Positions 14,799 through 55,162 are shown, counted from the stretch's first letter. The stretch: 64,000 nucleotides of DNA from a bacterium (GCA_965213625.1 CBDBZU010000004.1:3488001-3552000); one strand, 5' to 3'. Notes: generated from the sequence alone by a model not told the origin. Made by a program: numbers and translations.

Positions 14799-14819
14799 CG
14801 TTCACTCCTTTGGTAGTCC

Positions 14820-15191: not shown

Positions 15192-15226
15192 GCCTTTCTC
15201 CTTTTCAGAGAGTTAACGGATATGCT

Positions 15227-15427
15227 TCTTAGCGTCCCATTTTCAGCACGTAAGGGCGCCGGTCGGTGTATCCGGCGCCCGTAGGCGGGCGAATCAAGGG
15301 CTCGTCATTTTCCGGGGGGTTCCCGAAAAACACGCCTCATCGTTTTTTGGGGGGCACCGGCAAATGATGGTCGCCTGCGGCCACCCTTTATTCGCCCGGC
15401 GTTCGTGCTAAAATGAGGACGCTAAGA
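15227..15427 (-). promoter_or_regulatory. Conserved ~200 nt multi-branched stem-loop upstream of DUF4326 (candidate ssDNA promoter or RNA leader), copy 1
   Basis: Outer stem CTTAGCGTCC (15228)/GGACGCTAAG (15417) and inner hairpins; compensatory changes relative to copy 2. Confidence 0.6.
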
Positions 15428-15748
15428 GAGAGACACTAGTACCGTCACCGGGACACAAGAGTTTCTGGTGTTTCACGATGAAGGCGAAGCTCATCGGGAA
15501 ACAATCTCTCATGCTGCGGAAAGGGTCATTTCGGGCCGTTATTCGGCCCGGAATTCCCGCAGCGGGGGGTGGACCGAGCCACTGTCTTGAGCATGGAATG
15601 ATCGCAGGCGCAAGCCGATCTTCCGTGAACATGGTTTATCGTTCACGGAACCGGAGGCTATCGAGGTGTTCCCGGTAGACGAGAGAAGCCTACAGGGAGG
15701 GAAAGGCGCGGGCGCTTCGGCGGTGGACTTCCTCCGGACAACGGGCAT

Positions 15749-15788
15749 AAGAAAAGGGGTCGACGCGCGTGATGGCGCCGACCCCTTG
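15749..15788 (-). terminator. Rho-independent terminator after ssb
   Basis: Minus strand AAGGGGTCGGCGC...GCGTCGACCCCTTTTTCTT hairpin plus T tract. Confidence 0.6.
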
Positions 15789-15795
15789 TGAGCAC

Positions 15796-16221
15796 TTAAA
15801 ACCGGATGTCCTCCTCCTCACCCCCGACCCCTGCGGCGACGGGCACGCCGTTGCCGTTGTTGTTCCCGTTCGCCTTGTCCAAAAACTGGACGACCCCGCC
15901 GGGTGCTACGAGTATCTCGGTCGAGAAGCGTTCCGAATCCTCCTCGTCCTTCTTCCAGCGACGGGTCTGGAGCTTGCCCGCGACGTAGACCAGACGGCCT
16001 TTCTTCGCGTGCCGCTCGAACATGTCCACCAGGCCGGGCTGGAAGGTCACGATCCTATGCCACTCCGTTTTCTCCACCCTCTCACCGGATTGCTTGTCCA
16101 CGTAGCCCTCATCGGTGGCGATGGATAGATTTGCGACGCGTCCCCCGCTCGCGAGATGGTTGATGGTGACGTCGGCGCCTAAGCGCCCGATCAGTTCCGC
16201 ACGGTTCAGTCCGAATGCCAT
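15796..16221 (-). CDS. ssb: Single-stranded DNA-binding protein
   Basis: LNRAELIGRLGAD, TEWHRIV, KKGRLVYVAGKLQTRRW, acidic tail EEEDIRF; AAGGAG SD. Confidence 0.93.
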   Translation of the reverse strand: MAFGLNRAELIGRLGADVTINHLASGGRVANLSIATDEGYVDKQSGERVEKTEWHRIVTFQPGLVDMFERHAKKGRLVYVAGKLQTRRWKKDEEDSERFSTEILVAPGGVVQFLDKANGNNNGNGVPVAAGVGGEEEDIRF

Positions 16222-16301
16222 TTTGTTACTCCTTGAAGTGTAGTGTGGATGATAAAGTCGAGGAGCCGGAAATCCTCTCTCCCCGACCCCCCCCGTTCGT
16301 C

Positions 16302-16433
16302 CTAAACGCTACAAAACTCCACTTCGCCGTCCGCCTCGGCGCGCAGCTTGCGGATCGTGTACGCATCGAGTCCGAGTTCTGCGAGCAACTCATCCGCGGT
16401 GGGAACGTCGACGTCGTAGTCGTTCTCGTACAT
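16302..16433 (-). CDS. Small acidic hypothetical protein (43 aa), not in the ORF track
   Basis: GAGGAGG SD then MYENDYDVDVPTADELLAELGLDAYTIRKLRAEADGEVEFCSV-stop, just upstream of ssb. Confidence 0.5.
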   Translation of the reverse strand: MYENDYDVDVPTADELLAELGLDAYTIRKLRAEADGEVEFCSV

Positions 16434-16635
16434 GGCCGTGCCTCCTCTCGGGTTGTCCCCGGCGGCGGGAACTGGAGACCGTCTCCCTCCCCCCTACCGG
16501 GTATTTGCCCGGCTCTCCGCTTCCCTTTCACTCTCGAGAGGAGGTTCTCACCCGGCGGGAACCACTCGCGCAAGGTGTTTGCCTTTACCGCGGATTCGTG
16601 TCAGACAGCGCACGGAGGTGAGGAAGGGAGGAGGT

Positions 16636-17043
16636 ATGGAACGACTCAAGCTCTGGTTGCCGGCGCTGCTGTGGCTGCCTGCGGGGATTATCGCAGAGGA
16701 GGTTCTGCGCACCGGGTCAATGGAGGGTGCAGATACGCTGCTTGACGTCCTGGAGTTGCTGCCCGCCGCTCCGTGCGGCATCCCCCTCGCGCTCGCCTGC
16801 CGGCGACTTGCCCGCTCGGGCTATCCGGGTCCCTCCCTGGTGGCGTGGTTGCTACTCGGCGCGGCCTCTGTGATGGGCTTCCTCGGTCCGCTCCCCGTGG
16901 GCGTTCAGGCGCTCCTGGTCTCTTTTCCGGTATGGATGGCGGTGTGGCGCCTCGAGCGTCGGCCCCGCGGCCCGGGATTCGCCCCTTCGTCAAGGCGGCC
17001 GGGGCGCGGGAGGTCTCAGGGGCCGTACCGCCCCTGGTCCTGA
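16636..17043 (+). CDS. Hypothetical membrane protein
   Basis: GGAGGT SD before ATG 16636; several hydrophobic segments. Confidence 0.5.
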   Translation: MERLKLWLPALLWLPAGIIAEEVLRTGSMEGADTLLDVLELLPAAPCGIPLALACRRLARSGYPGPSLVAWLLLGAASVMGFLGPLPVGVQALLVSFPVWMAVWRLERRPRGPGFAPSSRRPGRGRSQGPYRPWS

Positions 17044-17161
17044 GGCCCCGCGGAGACGTCCGATACAGGTCGACTCCCCCCGTCGAAGCCTCCCGCAGGA
17101 ATCCAGACGCCGTGGGGCCGGCTGCGGAGCAGGTCGGCGTCGGCGGCACGTGCAGGCGCGC

Positions 17162-17977
17162 TCACCAGGGAGCCGCGGTGAGTTTCGCCATCACGCAGGC
17201 ATCCTCCACGACCTCGACCTCATCGCGTGAGAGTTTCGCGAAGGCGAGGCACATGGCGACCTCCTCCCAGGAGTCCAAAGGTCCGTGCTCGATGCCCGTG
17301 GCCAGTTCCACCACGGTGTAGCGTGGTGGATGGACGGGCATTCCCCGGTGTTCGCCCGATGAGAAATACGATCGCCTGGCGCACGCCTCACACCTGGCTG
17401 CTCCATGAGAGGGGGCTGCGCAGTCAACACATGCCCCGCGGGCGCGCCTTGTATGATAGCGCGCCCGGCTGGCGGCGTTCTTGAGCGGACGGCGCTTTGA
17501 ATCCCTTTTGGCGCACGAAGCGCACGTCGAAGCCTTTCCGGTTACGGCGCCTCCGCAACGACCGCAAAGGCCCCTGGAGCGTCTTTTTTCATAGAGCTTC
17601 TTCTCCTCCGCCCGCCTCGCTTCCCGGCAGGCCTCGCAGACGACGCTGCCCTCCGCCGGAGCAAACTCTCCGCAGCGTACGCATAACCCGGCCTCCTTGC
17701 GCTCGCGCCTGCGCTTTCTCGTCCTCTCCCGCGCCATGCGCCGGCGGCTCTCGGGATCCCGCCCGCCGTATGCAGTTCCCCCTGCCCGGGCTCTCAAGTA
17801 GCGGGCGCGCTCGGCGACTCGGCTTCTATCGAGGCAGACCTCGCATAGGCTTCGCCCGGGCGCAGGAGGTTTTTTCCCGCATTTTGGACAAAGGCCCATC
17901 TCCTTGCGTTTGGCCGCCCGCCTCCTGTGGCGTTCGCGTTCGAAAGCGCGTCTTCGCTCCGGGTCCTTGTGGGGCAT
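17162..17977 (-). CDS. Basic multi-zinc-finger protein (eight CxxC motifs)
   Basis: SD before ATG 17977; four repeats of G(L/A)CxxC-x10-12-CxxC separated by Arg/Lys-rich helices. Confidence 0.7.
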   Translation of the reverse strand: MPHKDPERRRAFERERHRRRAAKRKEMGLCPKCGKKPPAPGRSLCEVCLDRSRVAERARYLRARAGGTAYGGRDPESRRRMARERTRKRRRERKEAGLCVRCGEFAPAEGSVVCEACREARRAEEKKLYEKRRSRGLCGRCGGAVTGKASTCASCAKRDSKRRPLKNAASRARYHTRRARGACVDCAAPSHGAARCEACARRSYFSSGEHRGMPVHPPRYTVVELATGIEHGPLDSWEEVAMCLAFAKLSRDEVEVVEDACVMAKLTAAPW

Positions 17978-18057
17978 CCTCTCTCCCTCCTTTGGGTGGA
18001 TGGAATCCGTACGGCCGGCGCCTGGCAGGACGTCCTCCCGGCGCGGGCCGGGAAGCC

Positions 18058-18357
18058 TCACCGGCACAGCATCTTTCCCCACACGAGGTGTTCGCCCCAC
18101 AGTTGCAGGCCGCTACCGGGGAGTTTAAGCCCCGTGCAGACAATGAGTTCATCCCGCGCGGGCCGCATATCCCGGACGGCTCTCCGCGAGGCGGTCACGC
18201 GCTTGCTCCTGCGCCCGCCCTTCTCCCCTCCGGGCAGGGGCCTGAGCTCGCCCCCGCCCGTGGATTTGTAGCGTCTTACCTCGTATCGCTCGTCGGCGAG
18301 TCCCTCGCCGAAGAGATGGGTGAGGAAGGTGTTCGCCTGTGGTTTCGGTTTACGCAT
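18058..18357 (-). CDS. Hypothetical protein (99 aa)
   Basis: AAGGAGG SD before ATG 18357 (MRKPKPQANTFLTHLF...). Confidence 0.35.
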   Translation of the reverse strand: MRKPKPQANTFLTHLFGEGLADERYEVRRYKSTGGGELRPLPGGEKGGRRSKRVTASRRAVRDMRPARDELIVCTGLKLPGSGLQLWGEHLVWGKMLCR

Positions 18358-19065
18358 CGCGCGGCCTCCTTGGAATGGGTGGATGATGGCGGCGACCGGT
18401 ACTGACCGGAGAGGGAGAACCTCCCTCCCGGACGCCCCGCCGCGCCTCCTCCCGGCCCGGCTCGGCCTCTTGGCGGCGCAAAGTGCGCCGGGGTCTTTCA
18501 CGGGAAGGGTGTGTCCGGGTCGTGGCCGTGAAGTTCCTGCTCCTCCAGTTCGTGGCGCCAGACGTAGCGCTCTCCCCTCCCGTCGGGGAGCCGGTAGCGG
18601 GTGAAAGCCGTCCCCGTGGCGGAACCCCCGCCACAGGACGCACGGCAGCGCCGTGAGAAGGCGCCAGAGGGCCCACAGGGAGGCGGAGACCGATCCCGGC
18701 CGCGAGAGAGAGGATTGTGGCGAGGACCGCGAGTGCGTGCGCCGCCCGGCCTCTCCGGCTGCGTCCACGGCGTTCCGGGTCTTGCTCAGGGTGTGAGGCT
18801 CAGGGGGGTTGCTTTTGCGCGCCATTATTTTATAATCAACGTTAACATTCAAATTCTATGTTTCTGAAAACGTTCATTTTCTGGGTGTGGGGTTTCTGGC
18901 AACTTATTGAAGCGAGGTCACGATGAAGACACTGAGCACGTTTGTCAGGGGATGGAAGAAATTGTGTGAATCCGGGTACCGGTTCTGCGCCGCGCGAGGC
19001 GGGGATATCCGGAAAATCCGTTCCGGGGGGTTGACAAACCGGCTCCGGGGGTCTTTGCATAATGA

Positions 19066-19124
19066 AGCCGAGCCGAGCCGAGCCGAGCCGAGCCGAGCCG
19101 AGCCGAGCCGAGCCGAGCCGAGCC
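19066..19124 (+). repeat. Perfect pentanucleotide tandem repeat (AGCCG)11 plus AGCC
   Basis: Read directly; ~280 bp upstream of the adhesin start. Confidence 0.97.
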
Positions 19125-19399
19125 ACCCTTGCTACGTCTCCGTAGCGCTGCCGCCTAGGGCGCTCCGCCTCCCGCCTGAGCCTTCCCCTACCGCCGGATG
19201 GCGGTCCGATATCGACCGGCATTGCCGCACTGCCGGTCCGCCGGCCCTTTCCTCAACAGGTTCCCTGCGACCGTCGCGCGCTCCCGTGCGTGCTGCGGGC
19301 GCTTCCGTTTGTGATCTGCGGCGCGGACCGATGTCCGGTGCTGCGGCCTTACGCACTACCAATCAAACTCTCACCGTCAAAGAGGAGTGTTGGAGAGCG

Positions 19400-22300
19400 A
19401 TGAAGTCTGTCCTGACAGCGCAAGGCTGGCGCTTGATTGCAGCCGTGGCGTTCCTGATTGCCGCAGTTCTTTTCGTCCCGCAGGCGCATGCCAATGACGA
19501 CCTGCCCACAGTTACGATCGAGGACGCAACGGCCCGCGAAGGGTCGATAATTACCTTCGTCGCGCGTCTCGACAAGCCCAACCGCACCCGGCAGCTGCTT
19601 CGGTTTTCCTGGAAGACGAAGGGAGGCACGGCCACGCCGGGTCAGGACTACACGGACAGCAAATACACGGCCTCGTTCTGGCCTGGTGAGAGCAAGACGG
19701 AAATTCACTTGTTCACAACGCGGGACGACCTTGACGAGGGAAGCGAAACCTTCGAGCTGGTGGCCTCCGACCCGTGGCGACTCAAGCTCGGGAACACCAC
19801 GGCGACCGGGACCATTGAGGATCCGCCAAAGAGGTCGAGCTCGAACCTGCCTGTTGTCAGCGTGCTCCCGGGCGCGGGCGTTACGGAAGGTGAAGCCGCC
19901 CTGTTTACACTCGTCGCCAACCCGCGGCCTGCCAGGCCGTTGAGGGTCAGCGTCACTATCGCCCAGACAGGCTCGTTCGCAACGTCGGGCCAGACCGGCA
20001 GGCGGACCGTTACCATCCCTTCCCGCGGGCAGGCCAGCTTCTCGGTCAGAACCGCAGACGACGGGCGGAACGAGGCGCCCGGCTCGGTGAATGTGAGGGT
20101 GAATTCCGGTTCCGGATACCAGGTATCCAGCAGCGCCCGTTATCGTTCCACCAGCGTCGATGTGGCCGACAACGATCGGCCCGTCATCAGCATAAGCGCG
20201 GGCTCGAAGGTCCGCGAAGGAAGGGCTGCCAGCTTCACGCTGTCGGCAAGCCCGCGGCCTGCGGCGCCCATCGTCGTCAAGGTGGCCGTGACCCAGAAGG
20301 GCGAATTCGCAAGCCAGGGTCAACTGGGCGAGAGAACCGTCACCATCGGCACCGATGGCAGAGGGAGCCTCAGTGTCGCGACCGACAGCGACACGCGAGA
20401 CGAGGATGACGGGTTCATCATGGCAAGCCTGACCGGCGGCCAGGCCTATACCGTGGGTACGCTGGCCTCCGCGCGCGTTGTCGTGACCGACGGCGGCGCG
20501 CCGACGCCCAGGATCGGCGTCCGCGCCCTATCCTCCGCCATCGTCGAGGGCGGCACCGCCCGCTTCGAGTTGACCGCGAGCCCCCGGCCCGCAACCCCGT
20601 TGAACGTGCGGGTGGAGATCACCGACAGCGGCAGCTTTGCGAGCCAGGGCGAGATCGGCACGAGAACCGTGACCATCGGCACCACGGGCAGGGCTACAAT
20701 CGATGTAGAGACGGACAACGACCTGGTGTCGGAGCCCGACGGTTCACTGACCGCCAGGGTGCGTTCCGGCACGGGTTATCTCGTGGCCTCCTCCGGCCGG
20801 GCCTCTGTCCAGGTTCGGGACGAGAGCGTTCAGGTCCGGATCAGCGCCGCCGGGAACATCGTCGAAGGCGGCACCGCAAGCTTCACACTGACGGCCCATC
20901 CGGCACCGCCGGAAAGCCTGGTGGTGAATGTCAACATCACGGAGAAGGGCGGCTTCCTGCCGGGCGGCGCCTATGCGGAGACCATCACGGTTGGCACGGA
21001 CGGACGCCAAACCTTCTCCGTCGATACGATCCACGATGAAAGGGCGGAAGCAGACGGCGCCATCGTCGCGACCGTCGAGAGCGGCTACGGATACGAGCCG
21101 GGCTCTCCGGCCAGAGCGACGGCGAGGGTTTCCGACTCGACGCCGACGGTCACCATAGCCGCCGGCCCGGCCGTTATCGAAGGCGATACCGCAAGGTTTT
21201 CGCTGACGGCCCGTCCGGCGCCCAAACGCAACCTGACGGTGCGCCTCAAGGTGACCGAGGTCGCCGGCGGGAGCTTCGTTCCTTCCGATGAGCTCGGACA
21301 GAGGAATGTCACCGTCTACGCGGCCGACGGCACGGGAACCCTGGAGCTCTCCACCGAAGACGACCTGACGGATGAAGCCGGCGGCACCATCACCGCCGCA
21401 ATCCTTGCAGATGAGGACGGCTATTACCGGACCGGTTCGCCCAGGTCGGCCACGCTTCGGGTCAATGATGACGATCATGGCCGCAACGAGCTGACCGTGT
21501 CGGTCGCCGACGCCGAGGTGAAGGAAGGTGAACGGGACGATAGGGGCATGAGGAGGCTCGCATTCCCCGTGACGCTCAGCAAGCCGGCCAGCCACTGGGT
21601 CTCGGTGTATTTCCAGATCCGTCCCCGGGAAGAGGGCCCCGGAGTGACCCCGGCGACGCCCGATGTCGACTACAGGGCGACCGGCCACCTGGCGGCCCGC
21701 TGGATACGGTTCCGTCCGGGTGTGACCGAAACGTTCACTCATGTCGACATCTACGATGACGACGAATATGAGCCGGATCCGGAGACGTTCGAACTGGTCA
21801 TCAGCCGGGCATGGGGAGCGGAAATCGCCGATGGTCGCGCCATAGGCACCATCCTGCCCGATTCGCTGGACGCGCCGCGCGGCACGCCGGTGGTCACGAT
21901 CACAGCGGAAGGCGCTGTCGAGGAAGGACGGCGCGCCACCTTCAAATTGAGGGCGGCGCCCGCGCCGGAGGAAGACCTTGTCGTCAATGTAACAGTGTAT
22001 GACGACAGTCTCGGAACCCCGGAGAGCGACTATCTCGCCGAAAGCGACGAGGGCCCGCAGACGGTGACCATTCCCGGTATCGCCAACCCGCGGGTGGCCG
22101 CCTATTACGGGGACAGTATCGCAACCTTGACCTTGAACACGGTTGACGATGACACGGAGGAAGTAGGCGGCAAGATTTCCGTGCATGTCGATAACCCCAG
22201 CGACGGGAGCTATGAAGCCGGCCAGGAGCTCTATTCCGCCGAGGTCGGTGTTCGCGACAATGACGGACCGCCCTTGTCCGTCGCTCCGGCTTTCAGTATT

Positions 22301-24157
22301 GCGGATGCAACGGCATACGAGTCTGACGGATCGATCCGCTTCGACGTCACGCTGGATTCTCCCGTCCCACCGGGTGCGGGGCCCATGACGGTCGATTACC
22401 AGACCTTGACCTGGGCGGGGGGTGCCAAACGGGGGGAAGATTTCGAGGACAAGCACGGGACGCTGACGTTCTACGAGGGAGAATCGTGGAAGGAGATCGA
22501 GATCACGATCAAGGACGACCAGCACGATGAGGGTGCGGAGCACTTCCGCGTGTATCTGTGGAACGCGCAGGGCGGCGCCAGGATTGCCGACCATTCGGCG
22601 ACGGGCACGATCACCAACTCGGACCCGATGCCAGCGGCGTGGCTGGCGCGTTTCGGGCGCGCGGCGGCGGAACAGGCGCTGGACGGCATTGCCAGGCGCA
22701 TCGCGGCCTCGCGCACTGCCGGGGTGCAGGGCACGATCTCCGGACAGGCGCTCAACTTCGATCCCGGATCGCAGTCCGAGGTCGCCCGCGCCTTCGGCGC
22801 CGGTCATGGCGGCTTCGGCAGCAGCGGCCCTGATGGCTTCGGCTCTCTAGGCTTCGGTCAGCATCGCTTCGGCGGAAGCGGCGCGCAGTCCCGGTCCATG
22901 ACGGCTCGCGAAGCTTTGCTCGGCAGCAGCTTCACGCAGACAGGGGAGAAGGACGGCACGGGCGGCAGCTTCGCCTTCTGGGGCCGGGCGGCGCAGTCGA
23001 GCTTCGACGGCCGGGAGGGCAGCTTCTCGCTCGACGGCGAGGCGACCACGGCGATGCTGGGCGCGGACTATGCGCGCGGCGACTGGCTGGTCGGCATGGC
23101 GCTGATGCATAGCAGCGGAGAAGGCGGCTATGCAGACAACGGACCGGTTTCCGGGGCAGGCAGCGGTACGGATTCCGTGCGCTGTCCCCAACCTCTGGAT
23201 GCCGGGATGCGGAGGGTCCTTTGCAGCGGCGCCGTGCGGGAAGGCGACGGCAGTGTGGAGGCGTCGCTGACGGCGGCGGTGCCCTATGCCTCGCTCCGGG
23301 TCTCGGAACGCCTGAAGCTCTGGGGCGCGCTCGGCTACGGTTCGGGCGAGGTGACGCTCGAGACGGCCATGGGCGACCGCTATGACGCGGACACGACGTG
23401 GTCCATGGCGGCGGCGGGACTCAGGGGCGGCCTTTTGAAGCCCGGGGGCTTCGGACTCGCCCTTCTCGCCGACGCGCTGTGGACGCGCACGGATTCAGAT
23501 GAGACCGGCGAGCTTTCGGCCTCGCGCTCCGAGGTGAACCGGCTTCGGCTGGGAATCGAGGGGAGCCGTGAATTCACGCTCGATGTCGGCGTCGTTGCAC
23601 CTCGGGTCGAATTCGGGGTGCGCCACGACGGGGGCGGCGCGGAGACGGGCTTCGGCGTCGAGGTGGGCGCCGGGGTATCGCTCACCGCCGAGCGTCTCGG
23701 CCTCGTGCTCGACGTATCGGGCCGCACGCTGCTCGCGCACGAGGACGAGGACCTGAAGGACCGGGGGATATCGGCCTCGCTGACCTATGACCCGGACCCC
23801 GGGAGCAAACGGGGCGCTTCGTTCGCGCTCCGGCGCGACCTGGGCGGTTCGGCCGCGGACGGGCTCGACGCGCTGTTCGCCTCCGATCCGCTGGCGAAGC
23901 GCTCCGGCGGGCGGAGCGACGGCTGGCGCGCGGAGGCTGCCTGGGGGCTGCCCGCCTTCGGCGGACGCTTCACGGGTTCTCCCTTCCTCGCCTGGGGCTT
24001 CTCGGCCGGGGCGCGGGACTACGACGTGGGCTGGCGCCTCGAACCCGAGGCTGCAGGCGCCCCCGACCTCTCGCTCGCCGTAAAGGCCACGCGGCGAGAG
24101 GCGGCGGACGATACGACCGACCACGGCGTCGGTGTCGACCTCACCGCACGCTGGTAG
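19400..24157 (+). CDS. Large autotransporter adhesin with Calx-beta/Ig-like repeats
   Basis: GGAGAG SD; signal peptide ending AHA; three Calx-beta-like repeats (ATPGQDY, DDxxDEGxETF) and six ~100 aa repeats (VxEGxxAxFTLxAxPxP); C-terminal beta-barrel region ending in LTARW. Confidence 0.85.
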   Translation: MKSVLTAQGWRLIAAVAFLIAAVLFVPQAHANDDLPTVTIEDATAREGSIITFVARLDKPNRTRQLLRFSWKTKGGTATPGQDYTDSKYTASFWPGESKTEIHLFTTRDDLDEGSETFELVASDPWRLKLGNTTATGTIEDPPKRSSSNLPVVSVLPGAGVTEGEAALFTLVANPRPARPLRVSVTIAQTGSFATSGQTGRRTVTIPSRGQASFSVRTADDGRNEAPGSVNVRVNSGSGYQVSSSARYRSTSVDVADNDRPVISISAGSKVREGRAASFTLSASPRPAAPIVVKVAVTQKGEFASQGQLGERTVTIGTDGRGSLSVATDSDTRDEDDGFIMASLTGGQAYTVGTLASARVVVTDGGAPTPRIGVRALSSAIVEGGTARFELTASPRPATPLNVRVEITDSGSFASQGEIGTRTVTIGTTGRATIDVETDNDLVSEPDGSLTARVRSGTGYLVASSGRASVQVRDESVQVRISAAGNIVEGGTASFTLTAHPAPPESLVVNVNITEKGGFLPGGAYAETITVGTDGRQTFSVDTIHDERAEADGAIVATVESGYGYEPGSPARATARVSDSTPTVTIAAGPAVIEGDTARFSLTARPAPKRNLTVRLKVTEVAGGSFVPSDELGQRNVTVYAADGTGTLELSTEDDLTDEAGGTITAAILADEDGYYRTGSPRSATLRVNDDDHGRNELTVSVADAEVKEGERDDRGMRRLAFPVTLSKPASHWVSVYFQIRPREEGPGVTPATPDVDYRATGHLAARWIRFRPGVTETFTHVDIYDDDEYEPDPETFELVISRAWGAEIADGRAIGTILPDSLDAPRGTPVVTITAEGAVEEGRRATFKLRAAPAPEEDLVVNVTVYDDSLGTPESDYLAESDEGPQTVTIPGIANPRVAAYYGDSIATLTLNTVDDDTEEVGGKISVHVDNPSDGSYEAGQELYSAEVGVRDNDGPPLSVAPAFSIADATAYESDGSIRFDVTLDSPVPPGAGPMTVDYQTLTWAGGAKRGEDFEDKHGTLTFYEGESWKEIEITIKDDQHDEGAEHFRVYLWNAQGGARIADHSATGTITNSDPMPAAWLARFGRAAAEQALDGIARRIAASRTAGVQGTISGQALNFDPGSQSEVARAFGAGHGGFGSSGPDGFGSLGFGQHRFGGSGAQSRSMTAREALLGSSFTQTGEKDGTGGSFAFWGRAAQSSFDGREGSFSLDGEATTAMLGADYARGDWLVGMALMHSSGEGGYADNGPVSGAGSGTDSVRCPQPLDAGMRRVLCSGAVREGDGSVEASLTAAVPYASLRVSERLKLWGALGYGSGEVTLETAMGDRYDADTTWSMAAAGLRGGLLKPGGFGLALLADALWTRTDSDETGELSASRSEVNRLRLGIEGSREFTLDVGVVAPRVEFGVRHDGGGAETGFGVEVGAGVSLTAERLGLVLDVSGRTLLAHEDEDLKDRGISASLTYDPDPGSKRGASFALRRDLGGSAADGLDALFASDPLAKRSGGRSDGWRAEAAWGLPAFGGRFTGSPFLAWGFSAGARDYDVGWRLEPEAAGAPDLSLAVKATRREAADDTTDHGVGVDLTARW

Positions 24158-24175: not shown

Positions 24176-25402
24176 TCAGGGAGAGGACGCCCCGGGATAC
24201 CCCTTCAGCACGTCCGCCGCGATGCTCTCTGATACCTCGAGGGCTGCCTCTCTCACCGAATCGCGCGCGGGATGCGCGTAGCGCGCCGTGGTTTCGACCC
24301 GCGCGTGGCCGAGCAGCTTCCCGATGGCGGGCAGGGATTCGCCCAGCGCAAGCGCGCGCGAGGCGTAGGAATGACGAAGGTCATGGAGCCGCACGTCACG
24401 GAGACCGGCGCGTTCACGGATGATCTCCCAGGGGTCGCTCAGGTTGCGCATATGCTCTCCCGGGACCTTGCTCGGTATGACCCATGGATTGCCCGCAACC
24501 CGGGGCGCGTTCGCCAGCACTTCCGCCGCATCGGGCGAGAGCGACACGCACCGCGGGCCGGTCTTCGAATCCGTGAGCTTGAGTTCGCCCGCCTCGAGGT
24601 CCACGTCCTCCCAGCGCAGCGAGAGGATCTCCGACTTCCTGCACCCGGTCAGAACGAGGAGCCTGATGGCGGCCACGGCGTGGACGGACACGCCCTTGCG
24701 GACACCGGCTTCTGTGAGCGTGCGGCCGAGGCGGCGGAACTCCTCCGTGCTCAGGAAGCTCTCGCGCCTGCGTTCGCGGTTTCTCGCCACGAGCCGGCAG
24801 GGATTGATAACCCCCTCGGGCAGGCGGCCCCGGTCCACGGCCGCGTTCCAGATGCGCGAGAGCGTATCGATTACATGGTTCGCCATGACCGGCGTCGCCC
24901 GGAGAGCGTGGTGCAGGTCCGCCGTCTTCGCGTGATCGACTGCGAGCGCGGGCGTCCTCCCGAGCGCGGGCAGTATGTGTCTCTCCACGATCAGCCGGTA
25001 CATCCGGGCCGTCCTGGGCTTCCAGCGCACCGCGACGTGCTCCTCCAGCCATGCCTGAGCCAGCTCGCCCACCGCCGGGCCTTTCGCCTTGCTCACGAGC
25101 TCAGCGGGCTCCCCGCCCGACTTGACCTGCGCGATGACGTGTGCAGCGCGCCTCCGCGCTTCTTCCGCCGTGATCACCCCGTGACGGCCCAGCGTCACCC
25201 GCTTCGCCGGCCGGCCCCGCGCGCGCGTCTGCGCCACATAGAACCTGCTCCCCGTGGGGTAGACGCGGACGCCGAAGCCCGGCAGTTCAGAATCCCAAAA
25301 GACGGTCGATGATGAATGCGATTTCCCTATAACGTCCTCTCCAGGACGACCCTTCGCCCCCTCCCCGGCCAGACTCGGCCTTTTCGCGGCGTAGAGCGGC
25401 AT
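24176..25402 (-). CDS. Tyrosine recombinase/integrase; native N-terminus probably replaced
   Basis: FWDSELPGFGVRV, TGCR, DSKTG, HDLRH, LGH, RYAH. The first ~30 codons do not resemble the other integrases. Confidence 0.85.
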   Translation of the reverse strand: MPLYAAKRPSLAGEGAKGRPGEDVIGKSHSSSTVFWDSELPGFGVRVYPTGSRFYVAQTRARGRPAKRVTLGRHGVITAEEARRRAAHVIAQVKSGGEPAELVSKAKGPAVGELAQAWLEEHVAVRWKPRTARMYRLIVERHILPALGRTPALAVDHAKTADLHHALRATPVMANHVIDTLSRIWNAAVDRGRLPEGVINPCRLVARNRERRRESFLSTEEFRRLGRTLTEAGVRKGVSVHAVAAIRLLVLTGCRKSEILSLRWEDVDLEAGELKLTDSKTGPRCVSLSPDAAEVLANAPRVAGNPWVIPSKVPGEHMRNLSDPWEIIRERAGLRDVRLHDLRHSYASRALALGESLPAIGKLLGHARVETTARYAHPARDSVREAALEVSESIAADVLKGYPGASSP

Positions 25403-25779
25403 CTGCGGACCGCGATACGATTGCGCTCAGTCGTGCTCTTTGCGAACATGCGTGAGCACATGCGGGTGCGTTCAGGGGAAACTTGAGGAAGTCCGGCAGC
25501 GAGACCCGGGCGAAGGGCACTCTCACGAGAGGGAGACGCTGCCTGCCGGGGCCGGGCAGGTACATGATCGGAAATCGGCCGGTGCTGCGGCACCGTCAAA
25601 TTCTCGCGCACAGGCTGCCGGGTGGCGTCTGGCGGTGCCGGAACTACGGCTTTCATGTGGTGTTGATATAGTGTTGATTCCATTCCGAATCAAATGGCTA
25701 AAGAATTATCTATCCTGTAACCTATTGTAAATATATGAATTAAAAAACATGCCCCGCATGAAATCCTCCAAACTTCCAA

Positions 25780-26130
25780 GTCGCGAATCTCTCGATCGCC
25801 ACCGACGAGGGCTACGTGGACAAGCAGAGCGGTGACCGGGTGGACAAGACCGAGTGGCACCGGGTCGTGACCTTCCAGCCCGGGCTGGTGGATATGTTCG
25901 AAAAGCACGCGAAGAAGGGCCGCCTGGTCTACGTGGCGGGCAAGCTACAGACCAGGCGCTGGAAGAAGGACGAGGAGGACTCGGACCGGTTCTCGACCGA
26001 GATCCTCGTAGCACCTGGTGGGCGCGTCCAGTTCTTGGACAAGGTGAACGGCAACGGTAACGGCGCGCACGCCGAGACGGCTGACGTGGTGGCCACTGTG
26101 GGCGTCGCGGGCGAAGAAATTCCATTCTGA
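25780..26130 (+). pseudogene. ssb: 5'-truncated ssb
   Basis: Starts abruptly at VANLSIATDEGYVDK and lacks the first 28 codons of copy 1; ends EEIPF. Confidence 0.85.
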
Positions 26131-26137
26131 ACACGAC

Positions 26138-26171
26138 AAGGGCCGGCGCTACGGCGTCGGCCCTTTCATTT
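26138..26171 (+). terminator. Rho-independent terminator after ssb copy 2
   Basis: AAGGGCCGGCGC-TACG-GCGTCGGCCCTTTCATTTT. Confidence 0.65.
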
Positions 26172-26522
26172 TGCTATCGACCTGGAGGAAGCCTCCCCTG
26201 GCCCGAGAAGAAGGATGAACACCCGGCCATGGACGAGGCTCTCACCTTTCCCGCTCTGCCGGCTCTCTCGTCTACCGGGAACACTCGAGGAATCTCCGGT
26301 TCCGTGAACGGTAAACCGTGTTCACGGAAGATCGGCAGGCGCCTGCGACCACTCCATGCTCAAGACAGTGGCTCAGTCTACCCCCCGCTGCGGGAATTTC
26401 GGGCCGAATAACGGCCCGAAATGACCCTTTCCGCAGCATGAAGGGATGTTTCCCGATGAGCTTCGCCTTCATCGTGAAACACTAAAAACTCTTGTGTCCC
26501 GGTGGCGAATCAACTGTCTCTC

Positions 26523-26723
26523 TCTTGGCGTCCTCATTTTAGCACGAACGCCGAGCGAATAAAGGGTGGCCGCAAGCGGCCATCATTTGCCGGTACCCCC
26601 CAAAAAACGATGAACCGTGTTTTTCGGGAACCCCCCGGAAAATGACAGGCCCTTGATTCGCCCGCCTACGGGCATCGGAAACGTCACCCGATGCCCTTAC
26701 GTGCTGAAAATGGGACGCCAAGA
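26523..26723 (+). promoter_or_regulatory. Conserved multi-branched stem-loop, copy 2
   Basis: Outer stem CTTGGCGTCC (26524)/GGACGCCAAG (26713); inner GGGCATCGG/CCGATGCCC; ends ~35 nt before the DUF4326 start. Confidence 0.6.
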
Positions 26724-26757
26724 AGCGCATCCGTTAACTATCTGAAAGGAGAAAGGC

Positions 26758-27128
26758 ATGGAAACCACCGTGGTGAACCTGAACACCTATGTCGATGAAC
26801 CCGCTAGCGGCCTGCTGGTAAGGATCGACCGCACGACGAAGTGGGAAAATCCCTTCCGCGTCGGCGCCGACGGCGACCGCGACGCCGTCATCGAGAAATA
26901 CCGGCGATGGCTGTGGGAAAAATCCAGCGCGAGGAGCTGGACCTCCACGAACTCGCCGACCTCCACGGCTGCGAACTCGGCTGCCACTGCCATCCACTCC
27001 CGTGTCACGGTGACGTCCTCGCACGCGCCGCCGAGTGGGCAGCCAAATATCTCGACGAGATGCCAAGGGAAGTGGGGCGCAACGAGCGTGGCTACGCTCT
27101 TCCCGAATTCAACCATCCCCTCGCTTGA
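26758..27128 (+). pseudogene. Frameshifted DUF4326 gene
   Basis: TGG-GAAAAATCC here versus TGG-AGAAAAATCC in copy 1 (1 nt missing near 26917); the two halves fall in different frames. Confidence 0.85.
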
Positions 27129-27178: not shown

Positions 27179-28135
27179 ATGACTGCCACCGCGACTCACG
27201 ACAACAAGGAGAGCACCATGTACGAGAACGATCACAACGATGCCCAGCATGAATCCTTCACCGCCATGGTCTGCGAGCAGGCCGCCCTGTTCGGCGCGAC
27301 TCCCGGGCCTGATGAGTTCGACAACCGGCCCGTGTGGGACGAGGGCGAGGCAACCGCCGCCGTCATCAGGGCCTTCGGCGCACTCGCGGAAGCTGCGCCC
27401 GACGGCACGCAACTCGCGGATGAGCGAAGAAACCTCCTGTGGGGATTCGTCAACACACTCGACGCCCAGACACAGCGCCTCGACCGCGCCGCCGACAAGC
27501 TCATCCCCGGCATCCGCGAACTCCAGCGCGAGCAGGACGGCTCCGAGATCCGCTCCCGCGAACTCGAACTCATGACCGACAGGGCCAACAACCTCACGGA
27601 GCGCAGGGACGCCTTCGAGGGGTTGCGTGACACGGCAGCCGACGCCTACCGCATCGAGACCGGCGAGGTCTGGCGGCCCAGGCGAGGATCACACGTCTCG
27701 CAGACCGGCAAGCTGACCTCCGCCGTCATCGAGGCGCGCGACTTCCAGCGAGCCAGAAAGGACCGCGAGAACACGGCTCATCTTCCCCAGGGAACCCTCG
27801 TCGCCGTCGCGGGTGGCAAGGAGGCGAACGATGCGGGTAAAATCATCGCGCACCTCGACCGCCTCAAGGCCAAATACGCCGACGTCGTCCTCGTCCACGG
27901 CGGCGGCCCCGGTGCTGAGAAGATTGCGGCGGGATGGGCCGAGCGCAACGGCGTCCACCAGGTCGTCTGCAAGCCGAATTGGGATGCCCACGGACGGGCC
28001 GCTCCATTCCGGCGCAACGACGAACTCCTGGCACTCCTGCCCAAGGGCGTGATCGCCTTCCCCGGTTCGGGCATCACCGACAACCTCGTCGACAAGGCTA
28101 AAACCCTCGGCATACCCGTCCAGAAAGTAGCGTGA
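27179..28135 (+). CDS. DUF2493 (YspA/SLOG-like) domain protein, copy 2
   Basis: Nearly identical protein to 13845-14798. Confidence 0.82.
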   Translation: MTATATHDNKESTMYENDHNDAQHESFTAMVCEQAALFGATPGPDEFDNRPVWDEGEATAAVIRAFGALAEAAPDGTQLADERRNLLWGFVNTLDAQTQRLDRAADKLIPGIRELQREQDGSEIRSRELELMTDRANNLTERRDAFEGLRDTAADAYRIETGEVWRPRRGSHVSQTGKLTSAVIEARDFQRARKDRENTAHLPQGTLVAVAGGKEANDAGKIIAHLDRLKAKYADVVLVHGGGPGAEKIAAGWAERNGVHQVVCKPNWDAHGRAAPFRRNDELLALLPKGVIAFPGSGITDNLVDKAKTLGIPVQKVA

Positions 28136-28842
28136 CGTGAACACTCCACTGGTCGCATCGCCACACAGGTGGTGCGACCCGTGGAGTCTCGCCGACAAAC
28201 GCTCGCGTCACTTGCGCCCGCAACGATGTAGACTCCACCGGTCTTGCCGCAGGAACATCTCCCCGCATTGCTCCTCACGCTCAATCGCCGCGACGGCTCC
28301 CGCTCGCCATTCTCACCAGCAAGATTCCCCCATCGTCTGTTCTCACGAACTCGACCATCTGACGCCCTTCGGCGCTTCGGGTTACACACCGGAACGCAGC
28401 GGGCTGCAAGGCTCCGGCATACGACGACCTGGTTGCTATCCCGTCTCCTGTGGACGACACGGGGCGCCAGGCGCATGGCGGATAACATGTATGCTCATAG
28501 CATACGCAATCTTTCTCATCCCCGAGGGCGCATGGCTGCGCACGTCGCGCAAGGATACCAGTTTGGTAGTAATTGGTGGCGTTTCGTAACACAATGTATT
28601 ACGGCCCGTATTACGTTTGTATGCTCCCGATTCCGGCCTTTTTTCGGTACGACGAGGTAGCCACCTGTGCGGAGTATGCTCTCTCGGATGGCCGCAAGAC
28701 CCTCGACAAGGGACGTTGAATCGAGGATAGACGGTCCCGGAAAAGCCCGGGTTTTCGCCCCGAACCAAGCCGTCGGAACCCGGAAAGGGCGAGCGATGCG
28801 GTCCGTATCGCCACCCGATCTTGTCCTGAGGAAGCGAAAAAG

Positions 28843-29327
28843 ATGACGCGAAACGACCCGAATCAGTCCGAAAAAGGCAAAAGTCAGCGGAAAACCCGAG
28901 CGACCCGCGCCGGCCACATTCTATCCGCTTCTTAAGTTCTGAGTGGAATCTGGTTGTACAGGCCGCCGCGCGGCACGGCATCCCGGCGGGTGAACTCGTT
29001 CGCAACGGCGCGATGGCCGCCGCCGAGGAACTGCTGGACAAGCCTCCAGAAGCCACCCTGTCGCACGGTCATGCCGCCCTAATCGAAACCGTCTACCGCA
29101 TGGTCTACGTGATGGCGACCCTGGATCGGGGACGATTGCTAGACGCCGGGCGCGGGAAAGAGCTCGAAGACCTCATTGCTGCGGCCCGCAGGACGAAGGC
29201 CCGGCGTGAACGCATGGGGTGTGCTGAACGAAGCGCCGAAGGGCGTCCCGATACTGCTTCCTCGTCCCAAGACGACCGGGTAAAGGAAGTCGTCTTGTAT
29301 CAGGCGATTAGCCCGAGCGGCGCTTGA
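28843..29327 (+). pseudogene. Probably frameshifted ribbon-helix-helix (MobC-like) DNA-binding protein
   Basis: ATG 28843 with SD is out of frame with RRPHSIRFLSSEWNLVVQAAARHGIPAGELVR, an RHH-like pattern that runs into ORF 29013-29327. Confidence 0.45.
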
Positions 29328-29627: not shown

Positions 29628-32600
29628 ATGCCCCGTGCATTTGCTCTGCGTTGCGCCCGGAACAAAGCGATGCGCTCGAAAGAAATAATGGTAATGAACA
29701 AAAAGGCGGATACCGGATCTCAAGGAAGTGGCGAGAAGGAGACACGGTCCCTGGAGGTCTCGGAAACGGCATTACGTTTCAGGGTCGAACGAAGAGGCCT
29801 GGCGTCGCTCTTGTACGCGATCCTGCGGCCTAAAGACGCCAAGGCGGCTTTCGTGAATGTGAACTCCCTGAACCTGATGCATGGGTCCGGATACACGGAA
29901 ATTCCAATCGAGGACATCTCGTCGGTTCAGGTCGAAACCGGACAGTACTGGAGCCGCATACACTTTTATCACACCGCAGGAATCGCTACCGTGTCGGGAC
30001 TGTCGCGGGACGGCTCCAGGGAGTTCACCGAAGTGCTTGAGAACGCCAGGATATCTTATTGGCGCCGGACACTGGAGACGGAGGTCGCGGAGCTCCGTCG
30101 ATACTTGAATACTCTGGAGCACATGGCGAATCCGCCGGAGCACATGGCGAGCGTTTTCCTTAAGTTGAGACGCGATACGGAAAAGGCGGTGAACCAATTC
30201 GCGGAGCGCTGGCCGAAGTCATTGCCGAGTGCCCCGGAAACCCAGCTACTGAAGAAGGTAGAATACTTTCTGGAAGACCCGGAGCTTTTAAAGGCGGAAG
30301 AAACCGCCAGGGTTCACTGGTGGCGCCAGAAGTTGGCGACGGAGATCGAAACGCTCCATTCGGTGCATAAGCGCATGAAGCAGCTCGCAAGTCCCTCAGA
30401 GTACCAAGCGATCAGCATATTCCGCGATCTGAGACAAGATGCAGAGAAAGCGGTGAAGCAATTTGTGGAACGTTGGCCGAAGTCGTTGCCAAATGCCCCG
30501 GATTTCCAGGTACTGAAGTCGATACAGGAATTTCTAGAAGACCCGGGGCGTCTGCGGGCGGAAGTGAACAACACCTTCGTCGAGAGAGAATTAAAGAGGT
30601 CACGAAGATTCTTCGACCGGATTGAGGCCCGGCCGCTTACCGAAGAGCAGCGCCGGGCGATCGTGGTGGATGAGGACCGGAACCTGGTAGTCGCTGCGGC
30701 CGGCAGCGGCAAGACCTCGGTGATCGTTGCCAAGGCCGGCTGGCTTCTCCACAGGAAGTACCTGTACGCGTCGGAATTGCTGCTCCTGGCGTTTGCGAAA
30801 GACGCCCAGAAAGAAATGGAAGAAAGGGTTCGAAAGCGTCTCGGAAATGAAGTTGCTGACGGGATGACCGTCAGGACTTTCCACAGTCTGGGCATGGCGA
30901 TCATAGGTGAGGCCGAAGGCAGGCGACCTGCATTGGCCAAGGAGGCAGAAAACGAAAACGCACTGTTCAATCTGCTCAAGGACATCGTCAACGAACTGAC
31001 AGAAGAACGAAAGTTCTTTGCTTCTTTGCTTAAGTGGTTTCAGTCACAGTTCGCACTCTACCGGAGTGAGCATGAATTCAGTTGTTGGGGTGAATATTGG
31101 GAATATATCCGGCGGCACGAAATAATATCGCTCAAGGGCGAGAGGGTCCGGAGCTACGAGGAATGCGAGATCGCCAACTTTCTCTATCTAAACGGCGTGC
31201 CCTACGAATACGAACGCATTTATGAGCATGAGACCGCCACGCCCGAAAAGGGCCCATACAAACCGGATTTCTATCTGAACGAAGCCGGACTCTACATCGA
31301 GCACTTCGGACTGGACATTTTGGGAAATACCGCGCCGCACGTCCCGAGGATAAAATATAAGGAAGAGATGGAGTGGAAACGTCGGACACATGCCGAATAC
31401 GGAACCACCCTGATTGAAACTTTCAGCCATGAGCATACCGCCGGCAAATTGACCGAGAACCTGGCCGAGAAATTGCGCGCTCGTGGTGTAAACCTGTCTC
31501 CCATACCCCGTGAAGAGTTCTTCACTGTGCTGAACGGGGAGAAACGGATTGACCCGTTCATTCGCCTGCTGGCGACCTTTCTCAAGCATTTCAAAGGCGC
31601 GAGGCTTACTTTTCCTGAAGTGGCCCGACAGGCCGCAGATCACAGGGCTCCTCTGCGGGCCGAAATCTTCCTCGCCTTGTTCCGGCCGGTCTTTGGGCGC
31701 TACGAGGAAAAACTCTCCGGCTCGGGGCAGATCGATTTTCACGACATGATCTCCAGGGCGACCGACCATATCGAGGCCGGACGCTATCAGAGCCCATTCG
31801 CATGTATCCTCGTCGACGAGTTCCAGGACATTTCGCCGGGCCGGGCGAGATTGCTCAAGGCGCTCCTGGAGAAGTCGCCGGGCGCCCGGCTGTTCGCCGT
31901 CGGTGACGACTGGCAGGCGATATACCGCTTCGCCGGCTCTGACATCGGGATCATGCGGAAATTCAAAGAGCATTTTGGTGACTACGAACGTATGGATCTG
32001 GGAACAACTTTTCGATGTGACGACCGCATCGCCTCGGTCTCTACCGAATTCATCCTGCGCAACCCTGCGCAGATTTCAAAGACGGTTGCTTCACCGCATC
32101 GGGCGGATAGCCCTTGTGTCCATGTCGGTCTTCCCAGTGAGCAGCGGCTTTCCCAGTTAAACGAGACGCTCGACAGAATTGCCGAAGAGGCCAGTGGTTT
32201 CGAGGGGAAATCGAGCGTGCTATTGCTCGGCCGCTACAATCACACGCGACCGAAAAACTTGTCCACACTCACCAAAAAGTACCCCGGTCTCTCGATTTCC
32301 TATAAGACTGCACACCGATCCAAGGGTCTCGAGGCGGATTATGTCGTGGTGCTCGGCCTGTGTGCAGGAAAGCACGGTTTTCCATCCGAAAACGACGACG
32401 ACGCGCTGTTCGATCTGGTCCTCGCGGCGCCCGAAGACTATCCAAACGCGGAGGAGCGGCGTCTGTTCTACGTCGCCCTTACCCGTGCGAGGCGCCGCGT
32501 ATTTCTACTTGCCGAGGGTGGTCCGATTTCTCCCTTCGTAACGGAACTGCTCGAGGGCCGATACGAGGTCACCGTCTTCGGTCGTGCGCCGGAAGACGAC

Positions 32601-32912
32601 GTTCACTGTCCCGTATGCATCAAGGGGCGTCTTGTGCACCGCGTAAGAAAAAGGAACGGCGGTGATTTCTATGGTTGTTCGAACTTCCCTTATTGCGAAC
32701 ATACGCAGAGTCCTTGTCCGGTTTGCGGGAAGGGATTGCTCGTCAAGGAAGGCAAAGCATTCCGCTGCCGAGATTGCGATCAATCCATTGAGGCCTGCCC
32801 CGATTGCGGAGGCTGGCTGCAGATGAAGACCGGTCAATATGGTCGTTTTTGGGGATGTTCGAATTATCCCTCGTGCACACTCACCCGCGACTATGGAGAA
32901 GATCGCAAATGA
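29628..32912 (+). CDS. Second HelD-like UvrD helicase with nuclease-like insert and zinc ribbons (start may be 29670-29694)
   Basis: Same motifs as 5833-8835 with long identical stretches such as FDRIEARPLTEEQRRA and NLVVAAAGSGKTSVIVAK. Confidence 0.88.
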   Translation: MPRAFALRCARNKAMRSKEIMVMNKKADTGSQGSGEKETRSLEVSETALRFRVERRGLASLLYAILRPKDAKAAFVNVNSLNLMHGSGYTEIPIEDISSVQVETGQYWSRIHFYHTAGIATVSGLSRDGSREFTEVLENARISYWRRTLETEVAELRRYLNTLEHMANPPEHMASVFLKLRRDTEKAVNQFAERWPKSLPSAPETQLLKKVEYFLEDPELLKAEETARVHWWRQKLATEIETLHSVHKRMKQLASPSEYQAISIFRDLRQDAEKAVKQFVERWPKSLPNAPDFQVLKSIQEFLEDPGRLRAEVNNTFVERELKRSRRFFDRIEARPLTEEQRRAIVVDEDRNLVVAAAGSGKTSVIVAKAGWLLHRKYLYASELLLLAFAKDAQKEMEERVRKRLGNEVADGMTVRTFHSLGMAIIGEAEGRRPALAKEAENENALFNLLKDIVNELTEERKFFASLLKWFQSQFALYRSEHEFSCWGEYWEYIRRHEIISLKGERVRSYEECEIANFLYLNGVPYEYERIYEHETATPEKGPYKPDFYLNEAGLYIEHFGLDILGNTAPHVPRIKYKEEMEWKRRTHAEYGTTLIETFSHEHTAGKLTENLAEKLRARGVNLSPIPREEFFTVLNGEKRIDPFIRLLATFLKHFKGARLTFPEVARQAADHRAPLRAEIFLALFRPVFGRYEEKLSGSGQIDFHDMISRATDHIEAGRYQSPFACILVDEFQDISPGRARLLKALLEKSPGARLFAVGDDWQAIYRFAGSDIGIMRKFKEHFGDYERMDLGTTFRCDDRIASVSTEFILRNPAQISKTVASPHRADSPCVHVGLPSEQRLSQLNETLDRIAEEASGFEGKSSVLLLGRYNHTRPKNLSTLTKKYPGLSISYKTAHRSKGLEADYVVVLGLCAGKHGFPSENDDDALFDLVLAAPEDYPNAEERRLFYVALTRARRRVFLLAEGGPISPFVTELLEGRYEVTVFGRAPEDDVHCPVCIKGRLVHRVRKRNGGDFYGCSNFPYCEHTQSPCPVCGKGLLVKEGKAFRCRDCDQSIEACPDCGGWLQMKTGQYGRFWGCSNYPSCTLTRDYGEDRK

Positions 32913-55043: not shown

Positions 55044-55162
55044 TGTCTAACCTCCTTATTTATGGAAGCAGTTTACCCGCGTTAAGGGAGGTTGTCAAGT
55101 GCTATTTTGGAATACATTAGCAAACATGGTAAAATTAGAAAATTTTACCATGAGGGAGGTCA

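Follow-up and report, generated by a model that had tools for sequence, protein, structure and literature searches.

What is a stable hairpin of about 200 nt doing immediately upstream of a pair of genes for DUF4326 and YAcAr (DUF2493) proteins in the genome of an uncultured marine bacterium? The genome (4.15 Mb) belongs to a sponge-associated Nitrospinota genus, and the window analysed here, a stretch of 64,000 nt, carries two copies of the arrangement. The original prediction had read these as a structured non-coding element with compensatory base changes between its copies, and had proposed either a new promoter acting on single-stranded DNA (ssDNA) or an RNA leader. A model for the former is provided by the Frpo promoters of conjugative plasmids, in which, as described in PMC9849209, PMC11541004 and PMC12672017, a stem-loop in the incoming strand rebuilds the -35 and -10 boxes, the leading genes being transcribed before the second strand is made and the promoter being off in the duplex. 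The two hairpins of the window, and the structural details referred to below, are as follows:

26523-26723, minus strand (template strand of DUF4326 and the strand proposed to fold): hairpin, copy 2; z -9 to -10, the minus strand being the stabler
15228-15426, plus strand (here the template strand and proposed folding strand): hairpin, copy 1, placed by word matches and by alignment to copy 2
26670-26696, minus strand: side hairpin GGGCATCGG / CCGATGCCC, branching off the template arm within the promoter spacer; two of its pairs covary
26706, minus strand: bulged single C of the template arm, bordering the -10 box on its upstream side; unpaired in the folds, and present in 57 of 57 copies

The branched fold upstream of the DUF4326-DUF2493 genes was borne out by energy calculations. 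Taken as RNA, positions 26520-26726 (207 nt) reach -99.4 kcal/mol (z -9.3), taken as DNA -61.3 kcal/mol (z -9.2), and the opposite strand as DNA reaches -68.1 kcal/mol (z -10.0), with 0 of 200 shuffled sequences as good in each case. The outer-stem words are present exactly as claimed, CTTGGCGTCC in copy 2 (26524-26533, plus strand, and 26713-26722, minus strand) and CTTAGCGTCC in copy 1 (15228-15237, plus strand, and 15417-15426, minus strand), giving four matches in the window where 0.24 are expected, a count reached in none of 100 shuffles; the three compensating pairs between the copies likewise proved real on alignment of both. The orientation given to copy 1 needed correction, since it is the reverse complement of copy 2 with its genes on the minus strand, and while the proposed size of about 200 nt holds for the hairpin, the conserved non-coding stretch is longer: turned round, copy 1 is 92% identical to copy 2 across approximately 490 non-coding bases (26265-26757). 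In line with the proposal of a new element, no Rfam family matched the hairpin, either at gathering thresholds, where the sole match in the window was a group II intron (58024-58240), or at E up to 10 in 26150-26850, where only a chance snoR9 match was returned (11.5 bits against a cut-off of 90).

Instead of the two copies claimed, 11 are found in the source genome, all of them ordered ssb, hairpin, DUF4326, YAcAr, and among the copies examined the hairpin never occurs away from DUF4326. Two types could be distinguished. Type A accounts for six of the 11 copies, one of which bears a 30-nt insert at the tip that is a hairpin too; in type B (five copies), some 130 inner bases are swapped for unrelated sequence. 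The basal stem, roughly from a -35-like box to the hairpin base, is common to both, and despite their unrelated inner sequences both types form a single long hairpin. In 13500-19000, neither ssb nor any other gene of the module was found to be preceded by a further long hairpin.

To this were added copies from related genomes, for a total of 58 gene-anchored copies, of which 57 contain the complete hairpin (L023, cut by a contig end, was dropped): 29 of type A and 28 of type B, corresponding to 28 and 26 distinct sequences. The 28 distinct type-A sequences, drawn from 14 genomes, were aligned as the strand opposite the genes, and 99.6% of the cells in their 75 predicted pairs are paired. Covariation holds in this larger alignment, with seven of the 75 pairs changed on both sides as opposed to 2.9 +/- 0.7 in shuffles (seven being reached in 0 of 500) and zero to two in slid registers, although the test is a shallow one because all sequences come from one genus. 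The clearest cases are two adjacent pairs of the side hairpin, already pointed out in the original prediction, 38/56 (AU 19, GC 7) and 39/55 (UA 16, CG 8), together with pair 68/207 (AU 10, GU 9, GC 8). For type B, where 25 of the 26 distinct sequences were used (one own-genome copy was left out), none of 74 pairs shows double-sided change; 11 pairs change on one side, always to G.U, and broken cells occur in two pairs.

Which of the two strands folds can be addressed from the same sequences. The template strand, opposite the genes, is the stabler in 53 of the 54 distinct hairpins with DNA energies and in all 54 with RNA energies, the mean gain with DNA energies being 5.5 kcal/mol for type A and 4.9 kcal/mol for type B. 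In a consensus that allows G.T, which is biased to the strand used for making it, the non-Watson-Crick cells are 131 G.T versus 9 A.C in type A and 112 versus 0 in type B; in a consensus that forbids G.T, and is thereby blind to strand, the template strand shows 13 G.T (9 columns) versus 5 A.C (4 columns) in type A and 8 (7 columns) versus 0 in type B, and a frequent C.A adjoins the -10 box on this strand. The outer pair quoted as covarying in the original prediction does change between the two copies, but four of the 11 own-genome copies have A.C here on the gene-sense strand, corresponding to G.T on the opposite strand. The same bias is seen in plasmid F (NC_002483), used as a control, where Frpo1 scores -123.7 on the strand opposite the genes versus -113.9, and Frpo2 -119.1 versus -111.6.

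Within the stem, promoter-like boxes could be recognised:

26536-26544, minus strand: extended -10 box TGCTAAAAT of copy 2, on the gene-distal, non-template arm
26558-26563, minus strand: -35-like box TTTATT of copy 2 (type A), 16 nt upstream of the -10 box; weak, matching TTGACA at 3 of 6 positions
15387-15414, plus strand: boxes of copy 1, TTTATT (15387-15392), a 16-nt spacer and TGCTAAAAT (15406-15414)

Read on the template strand from loop to base, the gene-distal arm carries TTGACC, 15 nt and TGCTAAAAT in type B, and TTTATT, 16 nt and TGCTAAAAT in type A. The hexamer is TAAAAT in 56 of 57 copies and TAGAAT in the remaining one, in each case after GTGC, the source of the TG in an extended -10 box. 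TTGACC lies at 15 nt in all 28 type-B copies, and TTTATT at 16 nt in 21 of the 29 type-A copies, with a one-base deletion in seven more and TTTTTT in one. On the template arm the box is 45-48 nt from the ATG of DUF4326, which is preceded by AAGGAG, a strong ribosome-binding site, and the hairpin ends about 35 nt before it. TGNTAAAAT occurs four times in the window (0.45 expected). In a simple scan of the ~490 nt the box site is the top sigma70-like site on either strand (10-11.5, all others at most 8.5), while a strict promoter scan of 26100-26900 returned no site; the simple scan, a looser linear one, found no site above 8 in the positive controls Frpo1 and Frpo2 of F, where the published boxes could not be recognised by eye either, and it is therefore not a validated detector of promoters of this kind. 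Gene-direction boxes on the sense strand score at most 8 and are interrupted, in both types by one additional base and in type A by another 27 nt as well. The -35 box of type A is weak (3/6), the spacers are short (15-16 nt), and in double-stranded form these boxes make up a conventional promoter directed away from DUF4326, so the boxes alone need no single strand.

The genes and non-coding flanks that accompany the hairpins are:

25816-26130, plus strand: ssb, copy 2, 5' end missing; Pfam SSB 3.4e-14 (profile 38-103), tblastn residues 28-116
26138-26165, plus strand: terminator-like hairpin after ssb, copy 2
26265-26520, minus strand: conserved flank, copy 2, with three to four smaller hairpins
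26758-27128, plus strand: DUF4326, copy 2, in two frames; Pfam on two ORFs, tblastn pieces
27179-28135, plus strand: YAcAr (DUF2493) SLOG gene, copy 2; Pfam PF10686, 1.5e-21
15796-16221, minus strand: ssb, copy 1, full length; Pfam SSB 3.5e-24
15430-15690, plus strand: flank with smaller hairpins, copy 1
14820-15191, minus strand: DUF4326, copy 1; Pfam PF14216, 2.5e-24
13845-14798, minus strand: YAcAr (DUF2493), copy 1; Pfam PF10686, 2.5e-22

Given the terminator-like hairpin after ssb, the DUF4326-YAcAr operon needs a promoter of its own. Both of its products have been described as predicted NAD/ADP-ribose-linked counter-defence domains (PMC7824862), which would suit an early-expressed gene pair, and leading regions are reported to be rich in anti-defence genes behind Frpo-like promoters (PMC11541004). 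The smaller hairpins of the flank also show compensating changes, one stem appearing as TTTCGGGCCG/CGGCCCGAAA, as TTCC.../...GGAA and as TTTT.../...AAAA, with intermediates that are C.A on the gene-sense strand and hence G.T on the template strand; these hairpins may serve to prime second-strand synthesis or may belong to an antisense RNA. In copy 2, DUF4326 is one base shorter than in copy 1 near 26919, at GTGGGAAAAATCC, and is out of frame, which may mean that the gene is decaying or that a base run was misassembled.

A clue to the order in which these genes might enter a recipient lies beyond YAcAr, where sites resembling a transfer origin (oriT) were detected:

13577-13610, plus strand: oriT-like site, copy 1, with core GCGTGGGGTGTG, identical to the plasmid F transfer-origin core
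28361-28410, minus strand: oriT-like site, copy 2, the inverted repeat GCAGC/GCTGC followed by GCGTTCCGGTGTG, a variant F nick core, and a conserved tail
29212-29245, plus strand: second, partial oriT-like copy near copy 2, in opposite orientation, ~840 nt further on and inside a 104-codon ORF

With blastn-short, each of the 11 modules was found to have such a site 250-400 nt past the stop codon of YAcAr, in every case on the opposite strand from the genes. When aligned, the sites consist of an inverted repeat, then GCGTnnnGGTGTG, then a conserved tail, and the repeat covaries (GCAGC/GCTGC, GCACC/GGTGC, GCATC/GATGC). The core GCGTGGGGTGTG is present in three of the 11 modules, copy 1 of the window included, and exact matches to GC[AG]TGGGGTGTG in the source genome are confined to those three. 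Plasmid F has an identical 12-mer at its transfer origin (NC_002483, 66156-66167), and there, too, the leading-region genes ssb and psiB are on the other strand; we take this 12-mer to be the F nick core, with the F cut position there. Just before the window (C4:3448000-3481200) lies a complete-looking F-type transfer system with TraV, TraC, TrbC, TraN, TraF, TraH and TraG as well as a coupling protein, and the same cluster contains a TrwC-family relaxase that is 32% identical to F TraI (E 6e-58), its N-terminal tyrosine pair and HTHA motif aligning with those of F TraI. Transfer system, coupling protein and relaxase end approximately 13 kb from an oriT-like site, the order after the relaxase being cas genes (GSU0054-family, Cas3, Cas1), the oriT-like core and then the module on the opposite strand. 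Most modules do not adjoin transfer genes; a second set of TraH and coupling protein was noted near C4:4079000-4085600.

With an F-type nick-site core just beyond the operon, near an F-type transfer system, the module can be interpreted as a leading region. From the 12-mer we infer that the TraI-like relaxase would nick the oriT-like site. Should it act on this core in the way TraI acts on F, the transferred strand would be the one that folds, and by analogy YAcAr, DUF4326, the hairpin and ssb would enter the recipient first, as template.

We therefore suggest that the hairpin is probably a promoter working on single-stranded DNA, an analogue of the Frpo and ssi elements of F and ColIb-P9, a reading drawn from sequence and arrangement. 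Of the options in the original prediction, the ssDNA promoter is thus supported, favoured by the fold of the template strand, the extended -10 box and the nick-core context, while the RNA leader is disfavoured. Most likely, the two module genes would be switched on while the new DNA is still single-stranded. In the proposed sequence of events, the TraI-like relaxase would nick the oriT-like site just beyond YAcAr, and the nicked strand would enter with its 5' end first, bringing in the YAcAr template, the DUF4326 template, the hairpin and ssb in this order. We infer that in vivo the stretch of ~200 nt would then fold upon itself, its basal stem rebuilding a duplex promoter in which the gene-distal arm would serve as the non-template strand (TTGACC or TTTATT, a 15-16-nt spacer and TGCTAAAAT) and the gene-proximal arm as the template. 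Host RNA polymerase would bind there, start within the stem some 40-45 nt before the ATG, and run off the hairpin into DUF4326-YAcAr ahead of second-strand synthesis. That synthesis would in turn remove the hairpin and presumably silence the promoter, as the gene-directed boxes of the duplex would be broken by the extra base at the -10 edge and, in type A, also by the 27-nt side hairpin in the spacer. A counter-defence role of the two proteins would fit such timing.

Other explanations can be weighed against this one. On duplex DNA, TTGACC or TTTATT followed by TGCTAAAAT reads towards the flank, and the boxes could simply be an ordinary double-stranded promoter firing away from DUF4326, with an antisense RNA running over the 255-nt flank towards ssb and the hairpin as a by-product or insulator; the G.T-type intermediates of the flank hairpins fall on that same strand. 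We consider this unlikely. Beginning about 7 nt past TAAAAT, the antisense RNA would include only the last ~15 nt of the 200-nt hairpin, and with a start so near the hairpin base it cannot explain the conservation, covariation and strand bias of the hairpin; moreover, past the flank that strand showed nothing resembling a terminator, and the fixed place behind the oriT-like site would be left unexplained. The strand and the leading-region context are, by contrast, equally compatible with the hairpin, perhaps together with three flank hairpins, serving chiefly to prime or pause second-strand synthesis in the manner of sso, ssi or the ssp2 roadblock of F, and UvrD-like helicase genes adjoin both modules of the window. 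Single-strand origins (sso) are hairpins of rolling-circle replicons, which encode a Rep protein, and share the conserved motifs RSB and CS-6; of the ORFs annotated here, none was noticed to encode Rep. Frpo transcripts are described as priming DNA synthesis, and ssp2 as stalling conversion until UvrD acts (10.64898/2026.01.09.698686; PMC12672017), host UvrD being reported to resolve ssDNA-promoter hairpins in F (10.64898/2026.01.09.698686). The constant spacing of 45-48 nt from box to ATG and the strong ribosome-binding site suit an mRNA promoter instead, and as a main role we regard priming or pausing as quite unlikely, bearing in mind that promoter and priming or roadblock roles are described as coexisting in F, at ssp1 and ssp2 (10.64898/2026.01.09.698686).

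The sense strand, too, folds strongly as RNA (-99.4 kcal/mol, z -9.3), and the hairpin ends ~35 nt before the ATG, as might be expected of an RNA leader of the DUF4326 mRNA (an attenuator, processing site or stabiliser) made from a promoter further upstream. This is very unlikely in our view, given that the sense strand is the less stable one in 54 of 54 variants even with RNA energies, that partly changed pairs are A.C on this strand, and that neither a promoter-like site upstream on the sense strand nor an Rfam match was found. That the palindrome has no function at all, being a selfish or recombination-made repeat that travels with islands, would account for the many copies per genome and for the combination of type A and type B inner parts with shared flanks, which points to mixing between copies. 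Such a repeat would hardly be expected to keep its place and direction in 11 of 11 modules, to show compensating changes above shuffled and slid controls, to hold box and bulge invariant, and never to be seen away from DUF4326 in the copies examined, making this a highly improbable account.

Returning to the ssDNA promoter, a more far-reaching version can be put forward, which we regard as doubtful: the 490-nt stretch would be a two-part ssDNA establishment cassette, with a branched promoter active only in the single strand (side hairpin, bulge) and three to four hairpins as a primase or priming signal, and the 11 oriT-linked copies would constitute a swarm of mobilisable defence islands borrowing one or two F-type transfer systems.

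To our knowledge, ssDNA promoters have been shown to work only in the IncF and IncI plasmids of enterobacteria. Three sequence classes with mapped start sites are described in F and pESBL (PMC12672017). The present element resembles class 1, namely Frpo1 and Frpo2 of F and ssi1-3 of ColIb-P9/pESBL, in being a long imperfect hairpin on the (here predicted) transferred strand, which is the template strand, in lying upstream of leading-region genes and beside ssb, just inside the predicted transfer origin of an F-type (MOBF) element, and in having boxes in the stem that are aimed at the gene; with F Frpo1 and Frpo2 it also shares the bias as to the folding strand. It differs in several respects. 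The hairpin is ~200 nt in length, while those of F exceed 300 nt, type A has a branched form, its template arm giving off a side hairpin within the spacer, and the promoter is of the extended -10 type with a weak -35. Whereas class 1 elements lie upstream of ssb, the present one is downstream of ssb and ahead of DUF4326-YAcAr, and its host is an uncultured Nitrospinota genus, the carrier being a chromosomal island and not a plasmid.

By sequence, no homology to Frpo/ssi class 1 was found against the F leading region: an nhmmer profile of the 58 copies returned nothing in F 52000-67000 at E up to 10, and blastn against the same region only chance words of 11-16 nt (E of at least 1.1). The device is nonetheless known in several unrelated sequence classes, as class 2 (ardA, klcA; ssp2) and class 3 (M.EcoGIX; ssp3) of pESBL and F illustrate (PMC12672017; PMC13478746); for these, starts by 5' RACE and induction in transconjugants are described (PMC12672017; PMC13478746), as opposed to the present element, which is known from sequence alone, and our sequence comparison with them covered F 52000-67000. 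Samuel et al. (2024; PMC11541004) describe Frpo-like candidates recognised by hairpin shape and -35/-10 boxes upstream of T-strand leading genes, in a search that started from five known Frpo/ssi sequences and candidates from four islands and proceeded by BLAST. Unlike these seeds, the present family has no sequence in common with F Frpo, although their supplementary candidates may include others. What it does have are the functional traits, that is, a stable stem-loop (z -10.0) on the strand predicted to be transferred, from which the downstream gene is read, -35/-10 boxes on the non-template arm aimed at the gene (the -35 being weak in type A), and a predicted leading-region place by an oriT-like site, with the T-strand as template in 11 of 11 modules. 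We read it as a putative further sequence class, unrelated to that of F because no sequence is shared with the F leading region and nothing similar occurs in PLSDB, and at the same time as a branched variant of a known device. If this holds true, the ssDNA promoter would be a general feature of conjugation, and it would yield rules for further searches, the folding strand being the nicked strand and the boxes lying on the gene-distal arm. It would also mark DUF4326 and YAcAr as first-expressed, and hence likely counter-defence, genes. The natural variants, with type A and type B inner sequences, the apical insert and the conserved bulge, form a ready mutational series.

As to distribution, within the genus BLAST detected the element in 13 of the 22 species besides the host; the 28 further genomes searched across the phylum did not yield it. 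Of the 23 genomes representing the genus, nine gave a TraH match, all of them among the 14 that bear the element and none among the nine that are free of it, and in 5 of the 14 no TraH was found; with relatives that are not independent of each other, this association is just a pointer. The plasmid collection PLSDB gave no match in blastn distant mode with 26265-26800 as the query. At 31 loci reached through the DUF4326 protein (L112-L142; mostly Alphaproteobacteria, with one Gammaproteobacteria and one Binatia bin), no DNA similar to the element was found. Of these, 29 were folded and seven inspected in detail, and in the latter, all outside the genus, DUF4326 is preceded by seemingly coding DNA that is conserved from locus to locus, without such an element. 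High folding energies upstream of DUF4326 outside the genus were accordingly rejected as evidence for a hairpin. In metagenomes the 14-mer ACGTGCTGAAAATG hit at least 120 loci, with the partner arm in none among the matches listed and nothing found by nhmmer at E 1e-3, but a 14-mer is too short and these matches say nothing on distribution. One locus in a bin labelled Alphaproteobacteria (L070) carries the whole element, with a DUF4326 that is 88% identical to that of the window, which indicates that either the DNA has passed between phyla or contigs from a common sponge sample were misbinned.

The surroundings of the modules show further rearrangement. Several module ssb genes are cut at about codon 28-40 and abutted by a tyrosine-integrase gene, and separate N-terminal ssb fragments lie beside integrases elsewhere; the sites concerned are 24176-26130 in the window and C4:15451, 52327, 949246 and 4111536 in the source genome. 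This suggests that integrase-bearing elements insert into the ssb of resident modules. Divergent beside the module lies an ORF of 1744 codons with Calx-beta domains (18923-24157, plus strand), as also at the corresponding place by other modules, and beyond it tandem tyrosine-integrase genes are present in several copies. UvrD-type helicases with topoisomerase-type zinc ribbons are encoded at 13-3588, 5833-8835 and 29628-32912 (all plus strand), and UvrD-type helicase genes stand beside both modules of the window, on the far side of the oriT-like site.

Elsewhere in the window, two TGGTAAAAT boxes facing apart (55127-55150), flanked by genes for an IS1595-type transposase and a SocA/Panacea antitoxin, look like a divergent promoter pair. 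The group II intron domain at 58024-58240 (Rfam RF02005, 122.5 bits) has a reverse-transcriptase ORF beside it (58569-59909).
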